Positions 24,490 to 30,561 of a DNA stretch of 39,802 bases are shown here, piece after piece (the first letter of the stretch is position 1; each line of letters starts with the position of its first letter). The notes beneath the pieces are model-generated. The model saw nothing but the letters and a program-made list of their open reading frames with translations. It made no database searches and was not told where the DNA came from. The position numbers and the translations under genes are program-made. The DNA comes from a virus (lineage: Duplodnaviria; Heunggongvirae; Uroviricota; Caudoviricetes), in IMG/VR virus record IMGVR_UViG_2671180139_000002, positions 1-39,802 of that record, one strand, 5' to 3'.

Positions 24490-24732
24490 TGATGCGGGGG
24501 TCTTGGTGACGATCTCAATGGGTGGATGCCCGTGTAGTGGCAACCCGAATTGTTGATTTGCTAATCGGCAAATCAGCTATAGTTCACATTGGACGACATT
24601 CGAGAGGGCATCCCAATGCGGAGTGCAGCGCTGCGGCGGCCAGCGTCATCCACGTCCAGGCCGGAAAGACAAAGACCTTCCATCGGGCACAACTCCATCT
24701 GGAAGACCTCTTCGGAGGGAAAGGCAGGGAGA

Positions 24733-25068
24733 ATGTACGCAATCGCATTCGACATGGATCAGGAGGCGCTAGCTGCGCACTATCCAGGTAATTCTCCTAA
24801 CAACGCTTATGAGTCCGTGCGCCGAGTTTTGGAGCGATTCGGTTTTCATCGGCAGCAAGGAAGCGTTTATTTCGGCAACGATACCGTGACGCCGGTCACA
24901 TGCGTCATGGCAGTGCAGGCGATGCAGAAACGGTATCCTTGGTTCGGGAAGGCCGTTTCCGACATTCGGATGCTTCGCATCGAAGAGCACAGCGATTTGC
25001 TTCCGGCGATTGCGGAACTGGAACTTGAATTAGAAGAGCCAGACGCGAATTTTGCTACCTCAGCTTAG
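24733..25068 (+). CDS. vapD: VapD family (Cas2-like) nuclease
   Basis: MYAIAFDMD...AY..V...L...GF.RQQGSVY...VSDIRMLRIEE..DL. Confidence 0.88.
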   Translation: MYAIAFDMDQEALAAHYPGNSPNNAYESVRRVLERFGFHRQQGSVYFGNDTVTPVTCVMAVQAMQKRYPWFGKAVSDIRMLRIEEHSDLLPAIAELELELEEPDANFATSA

Positions 25069-25186: not shown

Positions 25187-25702
25187 CTAAAAGCCTGCTT
25201 CCTTGCTGGCCTTGTCAATTGCGGGAAGCCAAGTGCGCAGGCTTTTATCCTTCAATTGAAGGACGCTTTCACGATCAAGGATCGAGTCCTTGTCAACAAG
25301 GACCGATTCGCTCATTCCAATAGCTCGCATATTGCGCTGGGAATCCGTCTCGTTTGCCAGACGCAGCAACCCGCGTCCTGTATAATACGCAAGGTCCGTG
25401 CAAAGCCCTTTAGCTTTGTCGCTCTTCTCATAATCTCCGAGAGCAATCCCTTCGATGTAGCAGGCAGCTTCCCAAATGCGGAACCGGGTCTTCCCTTCAG
25501 CCCATCCTAAGGGAGATAGGGGAAAAAGCCATTTCCAGCACGCAATAAGCATCCACCCGAAAGCTCCATAGATGGACACTATTCCCCCGACGGTCAAAAG
25601 CGGCCAGCCGATCCAAGGCGGCAGGGTCGGGATCGTCATGGGAAGAACCCACGAGCAAAAGGTGATTCCCCGCAATGCAATCGTTTTGTGCCAAGCCCTC
25701 AT
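25187..25702 (-). CDS. Accessory membrane-anchored hypothetical protein (start uncertain, possibly 25639)
   Basis: N-terminal hydrophobic segment; lower GC than flanking phage genes. Confidence 0.5.
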   Translation of the reverse strand: MRAWHKTIALRGITFCSWVLPMTIPTLPPWIGWPLLTVGGIVSIYGAFGWMLIACWKWLFPLSPLGWAEGKTRFRIWEAACYIEGIALGDYEKSDKAKGLCTDLAYYTGRGLLRLANETDSQRNMRAIGMSESVLVDKDSILDRESVLQLKDKSLRTWLPAIDKASKEAGF

Positions 25703-26134
25703 ACCGACAGGTTTGCATTACGACTGACTTCATTGCGAGTCATCTCCGCGCGAGCTGCGATCAGGTGGTTCCGAATATTCAAATTGAGCGAACGAGCTCC
25801 TGAGCGCCGGAGATGTCGGGAATGTTGCGGGATGTTGGGTGAGCCAAGGCTAGGAACCGCGGGTTCCTGCGGGCGCCAAGGATAGGTCACCGGAAGAGAG
25901 GCGAGCCAGAAGGCATCCCCCTGGCACACGCAAAATTTTTCTAGGACATCGACCCCTGTGGCGGGGAAGTCACGCGCAAGCACACCACCAATCCCACTCG
26001 CAACGCGCTCGCATGTGACTCGAAAGTCACACGCTCTAGAACGCTTTTAGAAGCTCACTGACAGCGATTTAGCGAATGAGCTACGAGCGTAGCAGAGAGC
26101 GCTAGAAACGCTCTCTGTGTCGCTCTGTGATCGT

Positions 26135-26722
26135 TTATTGCAGCTTCGCAAGCAGCGCTTTCGTCACGTCGCTTTCTGTGTTGAGCGTGTAGCAGATCGC
26201 ATTGCTTTCGTCGCGCGTTTCGCGAAGCACATCGAACATTTGCAGCGCATTGATTGAAGATGACGACTGCGTTGAAGCAGTATTAGCAGCGACGTGTTTC
26301 ATGTACTTAACAATGATCTTTTCGCGCTTTGCATCGCTCTTGCAAGACATAGAGCACGCGCTGATAGCGTCTTTGTGTGTCATGCGAAGTTCTGCGTTCT
26401 GAAATGCTTGCGCAGTCAGAAGAATAGCGCGCGTGTAGTGATTAAGCTGCGCTGCGCTTGCGCAAGCGCGAGCAACGTTGATGACTTTTTCAGAGGCATA
26501 CACGTTGAAGCGTGCATTGCTACGTTCTGCGCGATTGATGAAAGTAGCATCGACGTTTGCAGCGAGCATGATGCTTGCGATTGCGTCGTGATCGACGCTC
26601 TTTTTCATCGTCGCGAGCGTGTTTTGCATCGACGTGTTTTCGCTATTCTTAGCGCTTTCGTAAGTAGCGCGAGCGTCGAAAGCGGCGATGAGCGAAGCGC
26701 GGTAGGCAGTGACGTCGGACAT
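26135..26722 (-). CDS. Hypothetical 195-aa protein lacking Gly/Pro/Trp; paralog of 28638-29636
   Basis: ATG 26722 preceded by GAGAG and a sigma70-like promoter; aligns by eye with the 332-aa protein (LAANxD, NVYA, TAxTQxSS). Confidence 0.85.
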   Translation of the reverse strand: MSDVTAYRASLIAAFDARATYESAKNSENTSMQNTLATMKKSVDHDAIASIMLAANVDATFINRAERSNARFNVYASEKVINVARACASAAQLNHYTRAILLTAQAFQNAELRMTHKDAISACSMSCKSDAKREKIIVKYMKHVAANTASTQSSSSINALQMFDVLRETRDESNAICYTLNTESDVTKALLAKLQ

Positions 26723-26766
26723 GGTGTTCTCTCTGTGTTTGTTATGTGTCGTTATCGACAAGATGC

Positions 26767-26794
26767 AGAATAGAGCTTTGACAGAACGGGTCAA
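26767..26794 (-). promoter_or_regulatory. Sigma70-like promoter TTGACC-N16-TATTCT
   Basis: -35 at 26789-26794 and -10 at 26767-26772, about 45 bp upstream of ATG 26722. Confidence 0.5.
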
Positions 26795-27110
26795 GCACAA
26801 GAACGCATAGCTGTGATGCATAAATATGTGAGATAGTGCGTTGACAGAGATAGCGCAAAATGCAATTGTGTTTTCAGAGATTGAGAGGAGCGAACGATGA
26901 AGCGAACGGATGACACGAGCTGACCGAAACGGCGCAAAAGCCACAGTGGCCCAGGCGCCACATCCCAGCCCCGATCGGCACCGCGCCAGACCGCGGACCC
27001 CAGTGGCTCTTCCGCCACAACACCCCAGCCCTCCTGCCCACGGCGCCCCGAGGCGCCCCATGTCCGGCCCGCGGTTTATGCCATGGCTCTCCATGGCGCC
27101 GTTCCGCGGA

Positions 27111-27135
27111 TCCCACTGACCCAAGCCGTACCTAA
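27111..27135. repeat. 25-bp direct repeat copy 1 (TCCCACTGACCCAAGCCGTACCTAA)
   Basis: Identical to 28507-28531. Confidence 0.95.
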
Positions 27136-27334
27136 AATCCGCGCCGCCCGGAGATTTCGCCCTTCCCGGGCCATGAAATCCAACCCATGCGTGCTCATGG
27201 CGAGAAGCTGGCGAGACCGTGGCGAATATGTGTCCCTGAGAGCCCCATGGGGCACCGGGGAGCAACCGGCACCATGGAGCCCCGTAGACGCGCTCCGAAG
27301 AGAAGGGGCGCCGTAGCACCCCTCCCCTGTCGCG

Positions 27335-27682
27335 TCAGATCGCGACGTTCAATCCCATCTCGATGGCGAGCGCTGCAGCGGCGTCGTTGGCGCGCTGCGT
27401 CTTGGAGCGGCGGCGAAGAATGGCGACCCGTTCGCGCTTGCGCTCCGAGATGAGCCTACGCGCTTGCTCCCGCACGTCCTGCATCGTGATGCCCTCGGGG
27501 CAAGCACGCTCGAAGCGAACCCAGAGCTTCGCCCACTGATCGCGAGCCCGATCGCAGAGCAGCTCCTGCTCCGCCGTCTGGCGCACGCCGAAGACGATCT
27601 CAAACGAGCTGTCCATGAACTCGATGTAGTCAGCGGCGCGGGTGATGACAGAGGGGGCGACGAGAGTGATGCGGGACGACAT
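27335..27682 (-). CDS. Hypothetical protein (115 aa)
   Basis: GGAG RBS upstream of ATG 27682. Confidence 0.65.
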   Translation of the reverse strand: MSSRITLVAPSVITRAADYIEFMDSSFEIVFGVRQTAEQELLCDRARDQWAKLWVRFERACPEGITMQDVREQARRLISERKRERVAILRRRSKTQRANDAAAALAIEMGLNVAI

Positions 27683-27934
27683 TTGCTTGCTCCGTGTTCG
27701 TGTCGTTTTCGACATCGTCACTGTCGCGCGTCCGCTTCTGGGATGCGGGCGGGAGCGGATGGCGCGTGCGCGCTCCGGAGACGCTTGGGAGGTCATGGCC
27801 GCGGGAGACGGCGATCGCCGGCGCCATGGTCATCCATGGAGCGCCACGGCCTGAGTTTCACGGACCATGGCGGCCTGCGGAGAAAAGACCTGGCCTGGCC
27901 TCGAGAGACCAGACCGGCCTATGGTGCGTGGACC

Positions 27935-28165
27935 TCAGTAGCCCCAGGGGCTCAGATCGGGGATGCGCCCGAACCGTCGGTGGTACTTGCGATAGGTCTT
28001 GGCGATCAGCGTCGCCTCCGAGAGCATCATGGAGCGTTGCTCATGGGCGATGTGGCGCACATAGGCGCCGAACTCGTCGCTCCAGGTCTGAACCCGAAGC
28101 TGCCACCGGAAGAGCTTCCTGGGGTCGCGCTCCAGGCGAACGATGATGGAGGTCCGCGCGCTCAT
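27935..28165 (-). CDS. Hypothetical protein (76 aa)
   Basis: TGATG-coupled to the 38-aa upstream ORF. Confidence 0.55.
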   Translation of the reverse strand: MSARTSIIVRLERDPRKLFRWQLRVQTWSDEFGAYVRHIAHEQRSMMLSEATLIAKTYRKYHRRFGRIPDLSPWGY

Positions 28166-28281
28166 CAGCGGACGCTCGCGAGGACGATGACGAACGTCAG
28201 GAAGAGCACGGTGCAGGCGAACAGATCGGAGTTCACATAGCGCCAAAGCATCAGGTCGGCGGTGTTGAGGAACTTCTTCAT
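28165..28281 (-). CDS. Small 38-aa membrane peptide (MKKFLNTADL...FLTFVIVLASVR)
   Basis: Below the ORF-track cutoff; GGAG RBS, hydrophobic C-terminus, stop overlaps the next ATG. Confidence 0.55.
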   Translation of the reverse strand: MKKFLNTADLMLWRYVNSDLFACTVLFLTFVIVLASVR

Positions 28282-28294
28282 CTGCTATCTCCGT

Positions 28295-28312
28295 CCAGTC
28301 AGTGTTGACTGT
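28295..28312. promoter_or_regulatory. Palindromic motif copy
   Basis: CCAGTCAGTGTTGACTGT, upstream of ATG 28281. Confidence 0.6.
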
Positions 28313-28506
28313 CAGAGTGTCGCGCAGCTCGAGACGGGATGCGGTTGGCACCTGGTGGGATCGCAAGTGGCTTCCCATGGAGCTCCTGGGAGCCCCGTGG
28401 AGCGCGTTTGTGCCTTGGAGCCCCACCGATGCCCTCGGGACGCCATGGAACCCGCCCTGGGGCCCCTGAGTCGCGGCAGAGCCATGGAGGAACGTCGTTC
28501 CTCGGG

Positions 28507-28531
28507 TCCCACTGACCCAAGCCGTACCTAA
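28507..28531. repeat. 25-bp direct repeat copy 2
   Basis: Identical to 27111-27135. Confidence 0.95.
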
Positions 28532-28595
28532 CCGCGCACGCGACCGTACCTGGTTTCCGCCTGGCGCGGCAGCTCCATGGGATCCTCGTGCCGCG

Positions 28596-28620
28596 AAAAA
28601 GGGACGCCGAAGCGTCCCTT
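28596..28620 (-). terminator. Intrinsic terminator
   Basis: AAGGGACGC-TTCG-GCGTCCCTT with a T-tract on the - strand, just after the stop at 28638. Confidence 0.85.
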
Positions 28621-28637
28621 CTCCATCCCTCCTTTCG

Positions 28638-29636
28638 TTACGCTGCGAGGAGCTCCTCGATCTTCCGGGCGACCGGGGTATCGGTCACGCGGTAGACGGG
28701 GTTGCGGGTCGAGCCCTGGACCGAGACGGCGCCGATCGTCTGCAGGGCCTGCATGGTCGAGGAGGCTTGCGTGGGCGCGGTCGAGGCGGAGACCGTGTGC
28801 GAGACCAGGTGCTTCCTGAGCGCCGCTTCCACGCGGACCTTGTCGGAGGCTGCAGCCTTGGCGAGCTCACCGGTGAAGTCGAGGCCCGCGGCCCGGAAGC
28901 GGAAGAGCGACTTCATGCAGGCGATGTTGATGGCGTTGGTCAGCGCCCCACCTCCGAGCATGGAGGCGATGTCGGCGAACTTGCCGATGGCGTAGACGTT
29001 GTAGCGGGACCCGTCATGGCGCGACCCGTTCATGAAGGCGGGGTCGATGTTGGCGGCGAGGAGGACCCTGGCGACACCGGGGCGGACCATCTTCTGCCGG
29101 GCCGACTTGAGGGTGCGCTGAATGTTGGCGTTGTCCTCGTTCTTCCACTTCTCGAAGTCGGCGCGCTCGTCGATCTCCTTGCCGATGGCGTGCAGCATGG
29201 TGTCGACCTCTTCCTCGTCGACGGCGTCGAGCATGGCGTCGAAGGTCTCCGGCTCGTTGTTGCCCTCGGCCTGCTCCTCCTGGACCTCGTGGATGGCCTC
29301 GGGTTCCTGGACCTCGATGGCCTCGAGGTGGAGGACCGCTGCTTCCAGGTCCTTCTCGGAGACGGGCTCGTCGCTCTCCGGAGCGGCTTCCGGTTGGGCC
29401 TCGGTCTCCAGGGTCGCTTCGGCGACTTCCTCAGCCGAGAGCTCGATGGTAGCAGGTTCGTCCTGGGGCGCAGCGGTGTCGGCGCTCTCCGGAGCGATGA
29501 TCTCCATCGCGTCTTCGGCGATCGTCTCGACGACGGGCTGACCCTCGGCAACGATCTCGGAGACCGCGTTGATGAGTTCGGCGTCGCTCAAGGCGGCGAC
29601 GGTGGCGGATGCGATGTTTTTCTTGCGACGTGTCAT
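28638..29636 (-). CDS. Hypothetical protein with an acidic N-terminal extension; paralog of 26135-26722
   Basis: High-GC3 codon usage, own terminator, homology to the island gene. Confidence 0.85.
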   Translation of the reverse strand: MTRRKKNIASATVAALSDAELINAVSEIVAEGQPVVETIAEDAMEIIAPESADTAAPQDEPATIELSAEEVAEATLETEAQPEAAPESDEPVSEKDLEAAVLHLEAIEVQEPEAIHEVQEEQAEGNNEPETFDAMLDAVDEEEVDTMLHAIGKEIDERADFEKWKNEDNANIQRTLKSARQKMVRPGVARVLLAANIDPAFMNGSRHDGSRYNVYAIGKFADIASMLGGGALTNAINIACMKSLFRFRAAGLDFTGELAKAAASDKVRVEAALRKHLVSHTVSASTAPTQASSTMQALQTIGAVSVQGSTRNPVYRVTDTPVARKIEELLAA

Positions 29637-30489
29637 AGTATTCTAGTCCTCTGCGTTGCTCAGCGCTCGTTTGCGTCGCTGACAAGTATCAATTTACTGA
29701 TTGAGGCTAGGGGTACTACTGGAACGTAGTGGGACGTTTTCTTTCTTATTTCGCGCCATGGTGTACACACGCGCGCACGTACTCTATATATAAGCAATCA
29801 CCTGCGCCGCCCGACCATGGTATGACTTGAAGTCCCATGGTTCACCTTGGTGAGGATCTCCACGCCGGATGATGGCTTTCCTCGGAAGTGTGGATGAGGA
29901 CCTCCATGGCACCCCGAGGCAGATCATGGCTCTCCATGGTCTCGAGGCTATTCCGGGAATCCTGGAATGAGGACAATCCATGGGGCGCCATGCCGATGAG
30001 GCTTTCGCCATAGAGGTTCATGGGGCGTGGCGCGTGTGGATCGCCATAGTGAGGACGCCCGTGGAAGCGCGGAAAGTCCGTACCAGGTCCCGCCTCTACC
30101 GGGACATGCGTCCGTACCTAATTTCCGGCTGAGCGGCGAACCATGGAGAAATGCCGCCAAAAGAAAAGGCGCTCCGAAGAGCGCCTTGAGAGTTGAAGCG
30201 CGGGTGTCGAGGCCGCGCAAACACAGAGTGTCCGGCGAAGCTGCTCGGTGAGCGTCGTTCGCTGAACAAGATCGTTTATAGCTGATCGAACGAGGCTGTC
30301 ACGAGGGAGAAGGCGGATTTTCGAGGATGAGGCTTTCAAAGAGGACGTCGCCGGTCCCTCCTCTAGATCCACACCCTCACGCATCTATTCCCCACACACG
30401 GGCACACCTCTGTCCCTCTATACGCGGTCACTCTCTCTTGGGGTCTCTGGTGCGCATTCCGGAGAGTCTCTACCTCTTTGGGTATGGTG

Positions 30490-30561
30490 ATGCCCAAGCC
30501 CTCGCGCTCAATAAGTAGATACTTACGTATATATATTATTAGAAGACGCGGCTTTGGGCAT
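30490..30561. repeat. Second, more degenerate copy of the AT-cored inverted-repeat element
   Basis: 30526-30561 matches 15925-15960 at 31/36 positions. Confidence 0.85.

Follow-up and report, generated by a model that had tools for sequence, protein, structure and literature searches.

A phage-plasmid paralog without glycine, proline, or tryptophan, encoded in a local desert of GG and CC dinucleotides

The paralog pair and the GG/CC desert

The stretch of DNA analyzed here (the window) is the whole 39,802 nucleotides (nt) of the virus record IMGVR_UViG_2671180139_000002 and is part of a 109-kb contig, C37, in a genome of 4.2 Mb (65% GC, 43 contigs, 99% complete). Two genes on its minus strand encode related proteins of different lengths. 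The shorter protein contains no glycine (Gly, G), proline (Pro, P), or tryptophan (Trp, W), and its gene lies within about 0.9 kb that is nearly devoid of the dinucleotides GG and CC, which we refer to as the desert. The features that define this locus are as follows.

26135..26722, minus strand: short paralog (P0001), 195 amino acids (aa) with no Gly, Pro, or Trp, in a gene with five residual CC and no GG
28638..29636, minus strand: long paralog (P0002), 332 aa
28638..29213, minus strand: residues 142-332 of the long paralog, the homologous domain, with 12 Gly, 5 Pro, and 1 Trp and an isoelectric point (pI) of 9.5
29214..29636, minus strand: residues 1-141 of the long paralog, an acidic arm that is absent from the short copy and predicted to be disordered
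25994..26887: GG/CC desert of about 0.9 kb and about 51% GC, with the putative promoter, the leader, the short gene, and the 3' hairpins

An initial annotation, made from the sequence by eye, had proposed that the 195-aa protein is a paralog of the C-terminal part of the long one. BLASTP aligns the two with an E value of 2e-21 (33% identity across 147 aa), and an hhalign comparison of family profiles, built from 97 homologues of the short copy and 68 of the long copy, pairs residues 2-195 of the former with residues 142-332 of the latter (probability 100, E value 1.1e-41, 194 columns). The alignments support the view that the short and long genes are true paralogs. Both sets of coordinates and translations hold as first given, and the annotated count of 12 Gly, 5 Pro, and 1 Trp in residues 142-332 of the long protein versus 0/0/0 in the short protein is exact. 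Among the individual substitutions that had been read from the pair, P>A, G>E, P>S, and W>A stand, while the one written as PG>DA is P>H and G>D in the BLASTP alignment. The replacements are stereotyped across the family: Gly gives way to Asn, Asp/Glu, Ala/Val, or Arg and Pro to Ala, Ser, or Val/Thr. One correction applies to the DNA, in that the short copy is free of Gly, Pro, and Trp, yet CC is not fully absent from its gene.

A unit free of GG and CC cannot use GGN, CCN, or TGG codons. In the desert, however, the purge reaches synonymous sites, codon junctions, and untranslated flanks as well, and it is maintained while the protein diverges to about 30% identity. The GG/CC-free gaps in 25994-26887 measure 501, 189, 98, and 65 bp, against an element background of 0.147 GG/CC per bp, and gaps of at least 90 bp occur on C37 only among all 43 contigs. 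Recoding the short protein with the codon usage of the element gives an expectation of 55.6 ± 6.1 GG/CC, with a minimum of 36 in 5000 trials, where 5 are observed. If codons with internal GG/CC are forbidden, the codon junctions alone should contribute 22 ± 3, and they contribute 1. Downstream, the 141 bp after the stop codon contain no GG/CC; upstream, the 165 bp before the start codon contain four such dinucleotides only, all CC, of which two overlap in the -35 element, one lies just before the ATG, and one is at the outer edge. The GC content is lower in the desert (about 51%) than in its flanks (63-69%). When 14 deserts are pooled, the ratio of observed to expected is 0.03 for CC and 0.00 for GG, and GC and CG are enriched 1.85-fold and 1.74-fold, respectively.

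The element that carries this locus combines phage and plasmid genes. C37 and the window encode ParA, a ribbon-helix-helix protein, two ParB-N proteins, and a UvsW-like helicase, and terminase and tail genes sit on the homologous stretch of relatives. Among these relatives are pAMS5a and a Methylobacterium oryzae plasmid (both Methylobacterium plasmids of about 117 kb), Sinorhizobium plasmid pLM21S1, one Rhizobium beringeri plasmid, one Shinella plasmid, and the Rhizobium siphophages B1VFA, V1VFA-S, and RHph_X66. The RHEph10/pLM21S1 group has been described as plasmid-like prophages with a RepC replicon (PMC4447125, PMC5537653, PMC12509600). The best explanation of the pair, and one that we consider probable as a whole, is that both genes descend from an ancient duplication within a DNA-binding-type protein family that is specific to RHEph10/pLM21S1-like phage-plasmids of the Rhizobiales (about 117 kb, with RepC, ParA, and siphovirus genes). 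A search of 400 genomes of the same order found the short family in none beyond the window's own genome, and a scan of genome contigs for the short family likewise found none.

Loss of these three residues is not peculiar to the window. G, P, and W are missing altogether from 85 of 119 homologue clusters (47-66% identity). In a set of representatives obtained by clustering at 50% identity, proteins of about 200 aa remain free of G/P/W down to about 30% identity, and in family members of about 280-400 aa these residues make up 6-12% of the protein. An unrooted tree of 149 representatives, annotated with G/P/W counts, separates a short clade (support of 99 in the Shimodaira-Hasegawa-like approximate likelihood ratio test, SH-aLRT), in which 35 members are free of G/P/W, 13 are nearly so, and 16 have four or more in the domain, from a long clade (SH-aLRT 96), in which every member has 9-28 in the domain. 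Deserts with zero GG/CC, 750-1531 bp in length, surround the orthologues in pAMS5a (1531 bp), L003, L004, L005, L010, L012, L018, and L019. The more distant elements B1VFA (zero-GG/CC desert of 851 bp), pLM21S1 (1334 bp, also with zero GG/CC), and L015 each carry a normal long copy and, a few kilobases away, a G/P/W-free copy of 199-201 aa inside a desert of 851-1334 bp; the desert gene is reversed in orientation in these three, and the Methylobacterium and Rhizobium types differ in this respect. On this distribution, the G/P/W-free trait belongs to the whole clade and is old.

Lineages that have left the desert provide a natural control. The initial annotation had held that family members of normal DNA composition that nonetheless lack G, P, and W would speak against selection on the DNA, and the M. 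oryzae orthologue appears to be such a member: it is 51% identical to the short protein and has normal DNA (71 GG/CC, 62% GC), yet it contains only 2 G and 1 P. It groups, however, with pAMS5a (a perfect desert) and Methylobacterium extorquens (6 GG/CC) inside the short clade. Because it is nested among desert-bearing lineages, its state is derived and reflects a recent relaxation, so that the conflict is only apparent. Elsewhere, independent relaxations have brought genes to 29, 37, and 133 GG/CC. The first sites to decay are synonymous NCC codons, which host codon bias favors. Slightly decayed genes hold 25 CC versus 3 GG, an excess that is no evidence for one strand because it is not clearly different from the 3:1 of fully relaxed genes.

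What the relaxed genes regain is informative. In nine columns, Gly or Pro is present in 60% or more of the long clade. Across all relaxed members of the short clade, 25 of 130 regained G/P/W fall at these nine columns with the same residue, where 5.9 would be expected at random; this is about 4 times the expectation and, by our own count, arose separately at no fewer than about 19 points of the tree. Desert-free lineages drift back to Gly and Pro at the positions conserved in the long paralog, a pattern which implies that the protein prefers Gly/Pro at these turns and that the desert suppresses this preference. Taken together, the sequence comparisons support selection on the nucleic acid, and not on the protein, as what keeps the short unit free of GG and CC. 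The earlier proposal that selection at the DNA level had overridden conservation of the protein is borne out in this respect by the purged junctions, flanks, and synonymous sites and by the Gly/Pro regained at long-clade columns.

A predicted winged-helix fold in both copies

AlphaFold2 models of the two proteins, the comparison of which had been suggested at the outset, share the fold of the domain. The short copy is modeled with a predicted local distance difference test (pLDDT) score of 96.8; in the long copy, the domain scores 97-98 and the arm about 50. Nine helices and two wing strands follow one another in identical order in both domains, and an AlphaFold DB entry as long as the pLM21S1 long copy (325 aa) matches the short model with a template modeling (TM) score of 0.87. 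The short copy (pI 8.9) is predicted to consist of a helical N-terminal half followed by a C-terminal winged helix. Both domains are basic. The arm of the long copy, about 130-140 residues with 39 aspartates and glutamates and a net charge of about -34, is predicted to be disordered.

Residues 85-195 of the model align to the winged helices of MarR, ArsR, RosR, and H1/H5 with Z values of 7-8.3 (7.2-8.3 for MarR, RosR, and H1/H5) and a root mean square deviation of 2.5-3 Å over about 80 residues. A helix-turn-helix core and a beta-hairpin wing are both present in the model, which is a prediction with moderate Z values. Like MarR/ArsR proteins and the globular domain of linker histones, the paralogs thus have a predicted three-helix core with a beta-hairpin wing and are basic; unlike the MarR/ArsR families, they have no membership in Pfam, NCBIfam, or PHROG at the level of sequence. 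Searches of Pfam, NCBIfam, PHROGs, PADLOC, and PDB sequences yielded no family for either paralog, Foldseek against the PDB returned nothing below an E value of 0.06, and the N-terminal helical half had no match. Both proteins are predicted winged-helix DNA binders, a role to which the basic pI of the domain (8.9 and 9.5) lends indirect support. Residues T148, Q152, and S154-S156 (T-x3-Q-x-SSS) of the predicted recognition helix are invariant and common to both clades. Because both copies share this helix, the short protein may have the same DNA targets as its long counterpart, and CCATGG-type arrays nearby are candidate sites. The features between and around the paralogs are as follows.

26924..27334: intergenic block dense in GG/CC, with CCATGG-type repeats, directly upstream of the desert
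About 27800-27935, 28262-28637, and 29700-30150: similar GG/CC-dense blocks
27335..27796, minus strand: conserved small gene between the paralogs, of normal composition

Of the 33 CCATGG sites on C37, 18 fall within 27081-30141, in the intergenic blocks around the paralogs. The recurring units there resemble (T/C)CCATGG(A/C/G) and are candidate binding arrays. By eye, the C-terminal tail of the small gene product is similar to those of genes in pAMS5a and phage B1VFA.

The limits of the desert and what may read GG and CC

The desert begins and ends at elements that resemble the signals of a transcription unit.

26767..26794, minus strand: sigma-70-like promoter, TTGACC-16-TATTCT, a consensus match and the only one in the region
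26746..26760, minus strand: inverted repeat in the leader, GTGTCGTTATCGACA on the plus strand
26085..26125, minus strand: first hairpin after the stop codon, with a terminator-like stem that lacks GG/CC
26015-26030, minus strand: second hairpin, GTGACT-TTCG-AGTCAC

In the window, no further CC/GG intervenes between the CC of the -35 element and the transcribed part, and the same position marks the edge in relatives. Throughout the superfamily, the GG/CC closest to the gene on its upstream side very often belongs, as CC, to a TTGNNCC -35-like element (examples are TTGACC, TTGTCC, TTGCTCC, TTGTGCC, TTGAGCC, and TTGAACC); in other loci it lies in the spacer. Its distance from the ATG is 53-100 nt at 9 of 13 measured loci. 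The ribosome-binding stretch is AGAGAGA-like and without GGAG at every locus, including the relaxed ones. The 3' edge of the purge comes after one or two hairpins of alternating G and C. Avoidance is thus limited to the predicted transcript in most loci, with edges at the -35/-10 elements and after the hairpins, and it does not concern a single word on the sense strand, from which GG and CC are both absent. Since the purge extends from the -35/-10 elements to past the hairpins, the constraint follows the transcription unit. These edges speak for the transcript no less than for marked DNA, which the initial annotation had favored. Its proposals that CC/GG sites are modified or bound, and that the short copy would serve right after injection and the long copy at another stage, gained no support from this analysis.

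Several observations concern the repeats and the extent of the desert. A near copy of the leader repeat, GTGTCGTTTTCGACA, lies at 27700-27714 in a 153-aa frame, ahead of an internal ATG, and the 15-nt pair GTGTCGTTATCGACA / GTGTCGTTTTCGACA is possibly a shared operator or an RNA hairpin. The motif TCGCTAAATCGCT, at 26060-26075 on the minus strand in the flank 3' to the short gene, matches TTAGCGA/GCTAAATC boxes. We gave no weight to a 17-nt imperfect inverted repeat (25957-25973/27003-27019, 76% complementary) that brackets the desert, since chance alone should produce its 8-bp perfect core within 1.2 kb. Rfam had no credible match in 25500-30500. Some deserts take in a second small gene. The one downstream of the short gene in pAMS5a (protein start MTLQDIAEMN, L002:6940-7320) is also free of GG/CC and of G/P/W; its homologues in the M. 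oryzae plasmid and in L012, where the desert of the first gene is perfect, have normal composition. Even close relatives thus differ in how far the desert reaches. A partly relaxed short-family gene in one metagenomic relative has beside it a near-desert that encodes an unrelated protein of 195 aa with a helix-turn-helix-like segment (L044:1520-2107, minus strand; 1 G, 1 P, 0 W; 4 GG/CC). This case suggests that the desert may be a property of the locus and not of one protein family.

We consider it probable that the pair represents a duplicated winged-helix family in which the short unit is held free of GG/CC by selection on nucleic acid, probably by way of the transcript. Both copies would share a basic domain of about 190 aa, composed of a helical N-terminal half and a winged helix with T-x3-Q-x-SSS, to which the long copy adds the acidic arm. 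The short copy would form a one-gene transcription unit with the TTGACC-16-TATTCT promoter, the AGAGAGA ribosome site, and the hairpin terminators, and selection on the nucleic acid would clear this unit of GG and CC while stereotyped replacements keep the fold. Because the purge spans the unit from promoter to terminator hairpins, the constraint would most likely act on the transcript, or on the DNA during transcription, through a factor that reads GG/CC. The short protein may serve as an arm-less competitor or regulator of the long one, and it may be made when GG/CC-containing nucleic acid is attacked, blocked, or silenced, for example upon entry into a new host.

A number of points weigh against this interpretation. 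In four loci, the desert extends 270-470 bp upstream of the start codon, and its edge is thus not always fitted by one promoter. The loss of both GG and CC is a strand symmetry that a reader of double-stranded DNA predicts and a single reader of RNA does not. The promoter and terminators are consensus matches, and the transcripts are predicted. The winged-helix match is moderate (Z of about 8), with no sequence match in Pfam, NCBIfam, PHROG, or PDB, and DNA binding is predicted as well. The tree is unrooted, and the direction of change, loss in the short clade and not gain in the long one, rests on the pattern of reversion. Lastly, a comparison of the gene contents of C37, pAMS5a, and the M. 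oryzae plasmid, aimed at a gene that disappeared along with the desert, left no candidate reader standing.

The alternatives differ in whether they invoke selection on nucleic acid at all and, if so, in what does the reading. One supposes no such selection: hypermutation by a cytosine deaminase specific for CC would have left the desert behind, or Gly, Pro, and Trp would have been selected against at the protein level in an all-helical protein. The GC content of the desert, lower than that of its flanks, and the M. oryzae orthologue, with only 3 G/P in spite of normal DNA, fit this view. The deaminase relic is excluded by the enrichment of GC and CG (1.7- to 1.9-fold where a loss would be expected) together with the replacements P>A, G>A/V, and W>A, which are beyond the reach of C-to-T changes. 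Moreover, the open frame and fold are conserved over more than 100 diverged homologues, junctions and noncoding flanks are purged as well, the M. oryzae lineage is nested among desert-bearing ones, and Gly and Pro are regained at the conserved G/P columns of the long clade, all of which leave an explanation without selection extremely improbable. A different possibility is that the short unit is a restriction-proof cassette that enters the cell first, with the desert at the tip of the packaged DNA and cleared of GG/CC so that it offers no GC-rich restriction site before the product acts. That these elements evolve by eliminating sites is evident from whole palindromes: CAGCTG (45 expected), AGGCCT, GCATGC, and CACGTG are absent from C37, GTAC (184 expected) and CTCGAG (145 expected) from pAMS5a, and GTAC, CAGCTG, and GTGCAC from the M. 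oryzae plasmid. This element-wide absence of several hexamers and of GTAC, versus 20-184 expected, has the look of classical restriction-site avoidance, with targets that change from host to host. Within the deserts, CAGCTG, CTCGAG, GAGCTC, and GTAC are missing as well, the strand symmetry suits enzymes that cut double-stranded DNA, and the relative B1VFA has fixed DNA ends with a 3.6-kb terminal repeat, the end coordinates being absent from the paper (PMC12509600). The upstream edge, however, lies at a promoter and not at a fixed DNA end, and the orientation of the cassette varies between the Methylobacterium and Rhizobium types. GC-rich sites that do not contain GG/CC are abundant in the deserts (AGCGCT, 51 versus 24.5 expected, as well as GCGCGC and TCGCGA), the M. 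oryzae lineage lost its desert yet keeps its own set of purged palindromes, and a winged-helix DNA binder is no obvious antirestriction protein. On balance, we regard first entry as an unlikely explanation.

Two further alternatives place the reader on double-stranded DNA. A silencer, or an array-binding protein of the element itself, that nucleates on the CCATGG arrays might spread over, or weakly bind, GG/CC-containing DNA, and the regulator gene beside the arrays would stay bare in order to be expressed. This would account for both the strand symmetry and the locality of the desert, which adjoins GG/CC-dense repeat blocks with 18 of the 33 CCATGG sites in 3 kb, and it suits two paralogs that are predicted DNA binders with a recognition helix in common. 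It is hard to reconcile with the CC/GG tolerated in the -35 element and spacer, which would be odd if occupancy of the promoter mattered, and a host chromosome of 65% GC would be coated as well. We know of no DNA binder with a two-base specificity that would demand the removal of all GG/CC, and we judge silencer escape to be decidedly improbable. Avoidance of protospacer-adjacent motifs (PAMs) would also explain the symmetry, as CC is the PAM of type I-F clustered regularly interspaced short palindromic repeat (CRISPR) systems and NGG that of Cas9-type systems, the best-known defenses that read exactly this dinucleotide on either strand; a stretch without both can be neither targeted nor sampled. 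Even so, only 1 kb of a 110-kb replicon would be protected and cleavage elsewhere would still be possible, the edges follow the transcription unit, and there is no Cas1 in the 99%-complete genome of the present host. We consider this very improbable. Escape from an RNase or RNA binder that reads a dinucleotide, resembling ZAP or MazF-type systems, was considered as well.

We put at somewhat less than an even chance the proposal that the Rhizobiales or their phage-plasmids hold an undescribed factor that acts on RNA or transcribed DNA at GG or CC, and that one regulatory unit has been kept invisible to it throughout the existence of the family, at the price of three amino acids. Such a reader is possibly of a new kind. 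No modification enzyme was found that is tied to the GG/CC-free trait. One candidate, a GHKL ATPase and its partner (homologues of rIIA, 786 aa, and rIIB, 445 aa, at C37:49451-53145, locus L035, outside the window), is present in nine desert-bearing elements and missing from both the M. oryzae plasmid and the distant element G005. We rejected it as the reader because G005 keeps its desert.

Other features of the element lie apart from the paralogs. Between the ParA/ribbon-helix-helix module and the desert, a gene at 24589-25068 (plus strand) encodes a VapD/Cas2-like protein (Cas2 E value of 5e-6 in Pfam and 3e-10 in PADLOC); it is probably cargo, as it has no annotated counterpart in pAMS5a or the M. 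oryzae plasmid. Three ministretches (about 160-180 bp) that each contain no more than 3 GG/CC occur at C37:34721-34880 (inside the window), C37:63351-63520, and C37:76041-76220, the first of which is rich in AGCG/CGCT boxes, like the 3' flank of the desert.

Significance and comparison with known systems

The short paralog is a natural experiment in which a two-letter word of nucleic acid dictates which amino acids a protein may use. It bears on how far selection on nucleic acid can override optimization of the protein and, with a predicted winged-helix fold built from a 17-letter alphabet, on protein design. The finding implies a GG/CC reader in bacteria or their phages. If this is correct, the paralog pair and the relaxed lineages offer a genetic handle for finding the factor, and the family has cultivable members in phage B1VFA on Rhizobium and pLM21S1 in Sinorhizobium. 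Our literature searches retrieved no published description of the trait.

Phages are known to avoid restriction sites, and examples of first-entering DNA include the site-poor first-step transfer DNA of T5 and the leading end of T7 with gene 0.3/ocr. The desert is similar in that short words are removed from DNA despite a coding cost. It differs in that the word is a nonpalindromic dinucleotide together with its complement, the purge affects about 1 kb only and is bound to a transcription unit, and three amino acids are removed from the protein. We know of no enzyme with GG/CC specificity in the hosts for which the avoided word would be the site. Words this short are nevertheless within the reach of proteins: the chlorella virus enzymes Nt.CviPII (CCD) and M.CviPI (GC) and the PAM readers type I-F Cascade (CC) and Cas9 (NGG) act on words as short as CC or GG. 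None of these explains a purge limited to one transcription unit, this host has no Cas1, and to our knowledge no reader of these types has been reported in Rhizobiales phage-plasmids.

For the implied GG/CC reader, we know of no described counterpart in bacteria or phages, and the nearest analogies are mRNAs free of toxin sites and the reading of CpG by ZAP. mRNAs that lack ACA withstand MazF, and GCU-poor transcripts withstand MqsR, each lacking the word of an endoribonuclease toxin. As in the short unit, avoidance there is delimited by the transcript and lets one message survive while others are cut; the toxin words, however, are 3-7 bases long and avoided on the sense strand only, whereas GG and CC are both absent here. 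In RNA viruses of vertebrates, CpG is suppressed and read by ZAP, and UpA is read through RNase L. There, too, viral sequences evolve to lack a dinucleotide that a host factor recognizes in their RNA, with effects on the use of codons and amino acids. That system is eukaryotic and genome-wide and concerns the self-complementary CpG, while the desert belongs to one transcription unit in a bacterium and concerns a dinucleotide that is not self-complementary.

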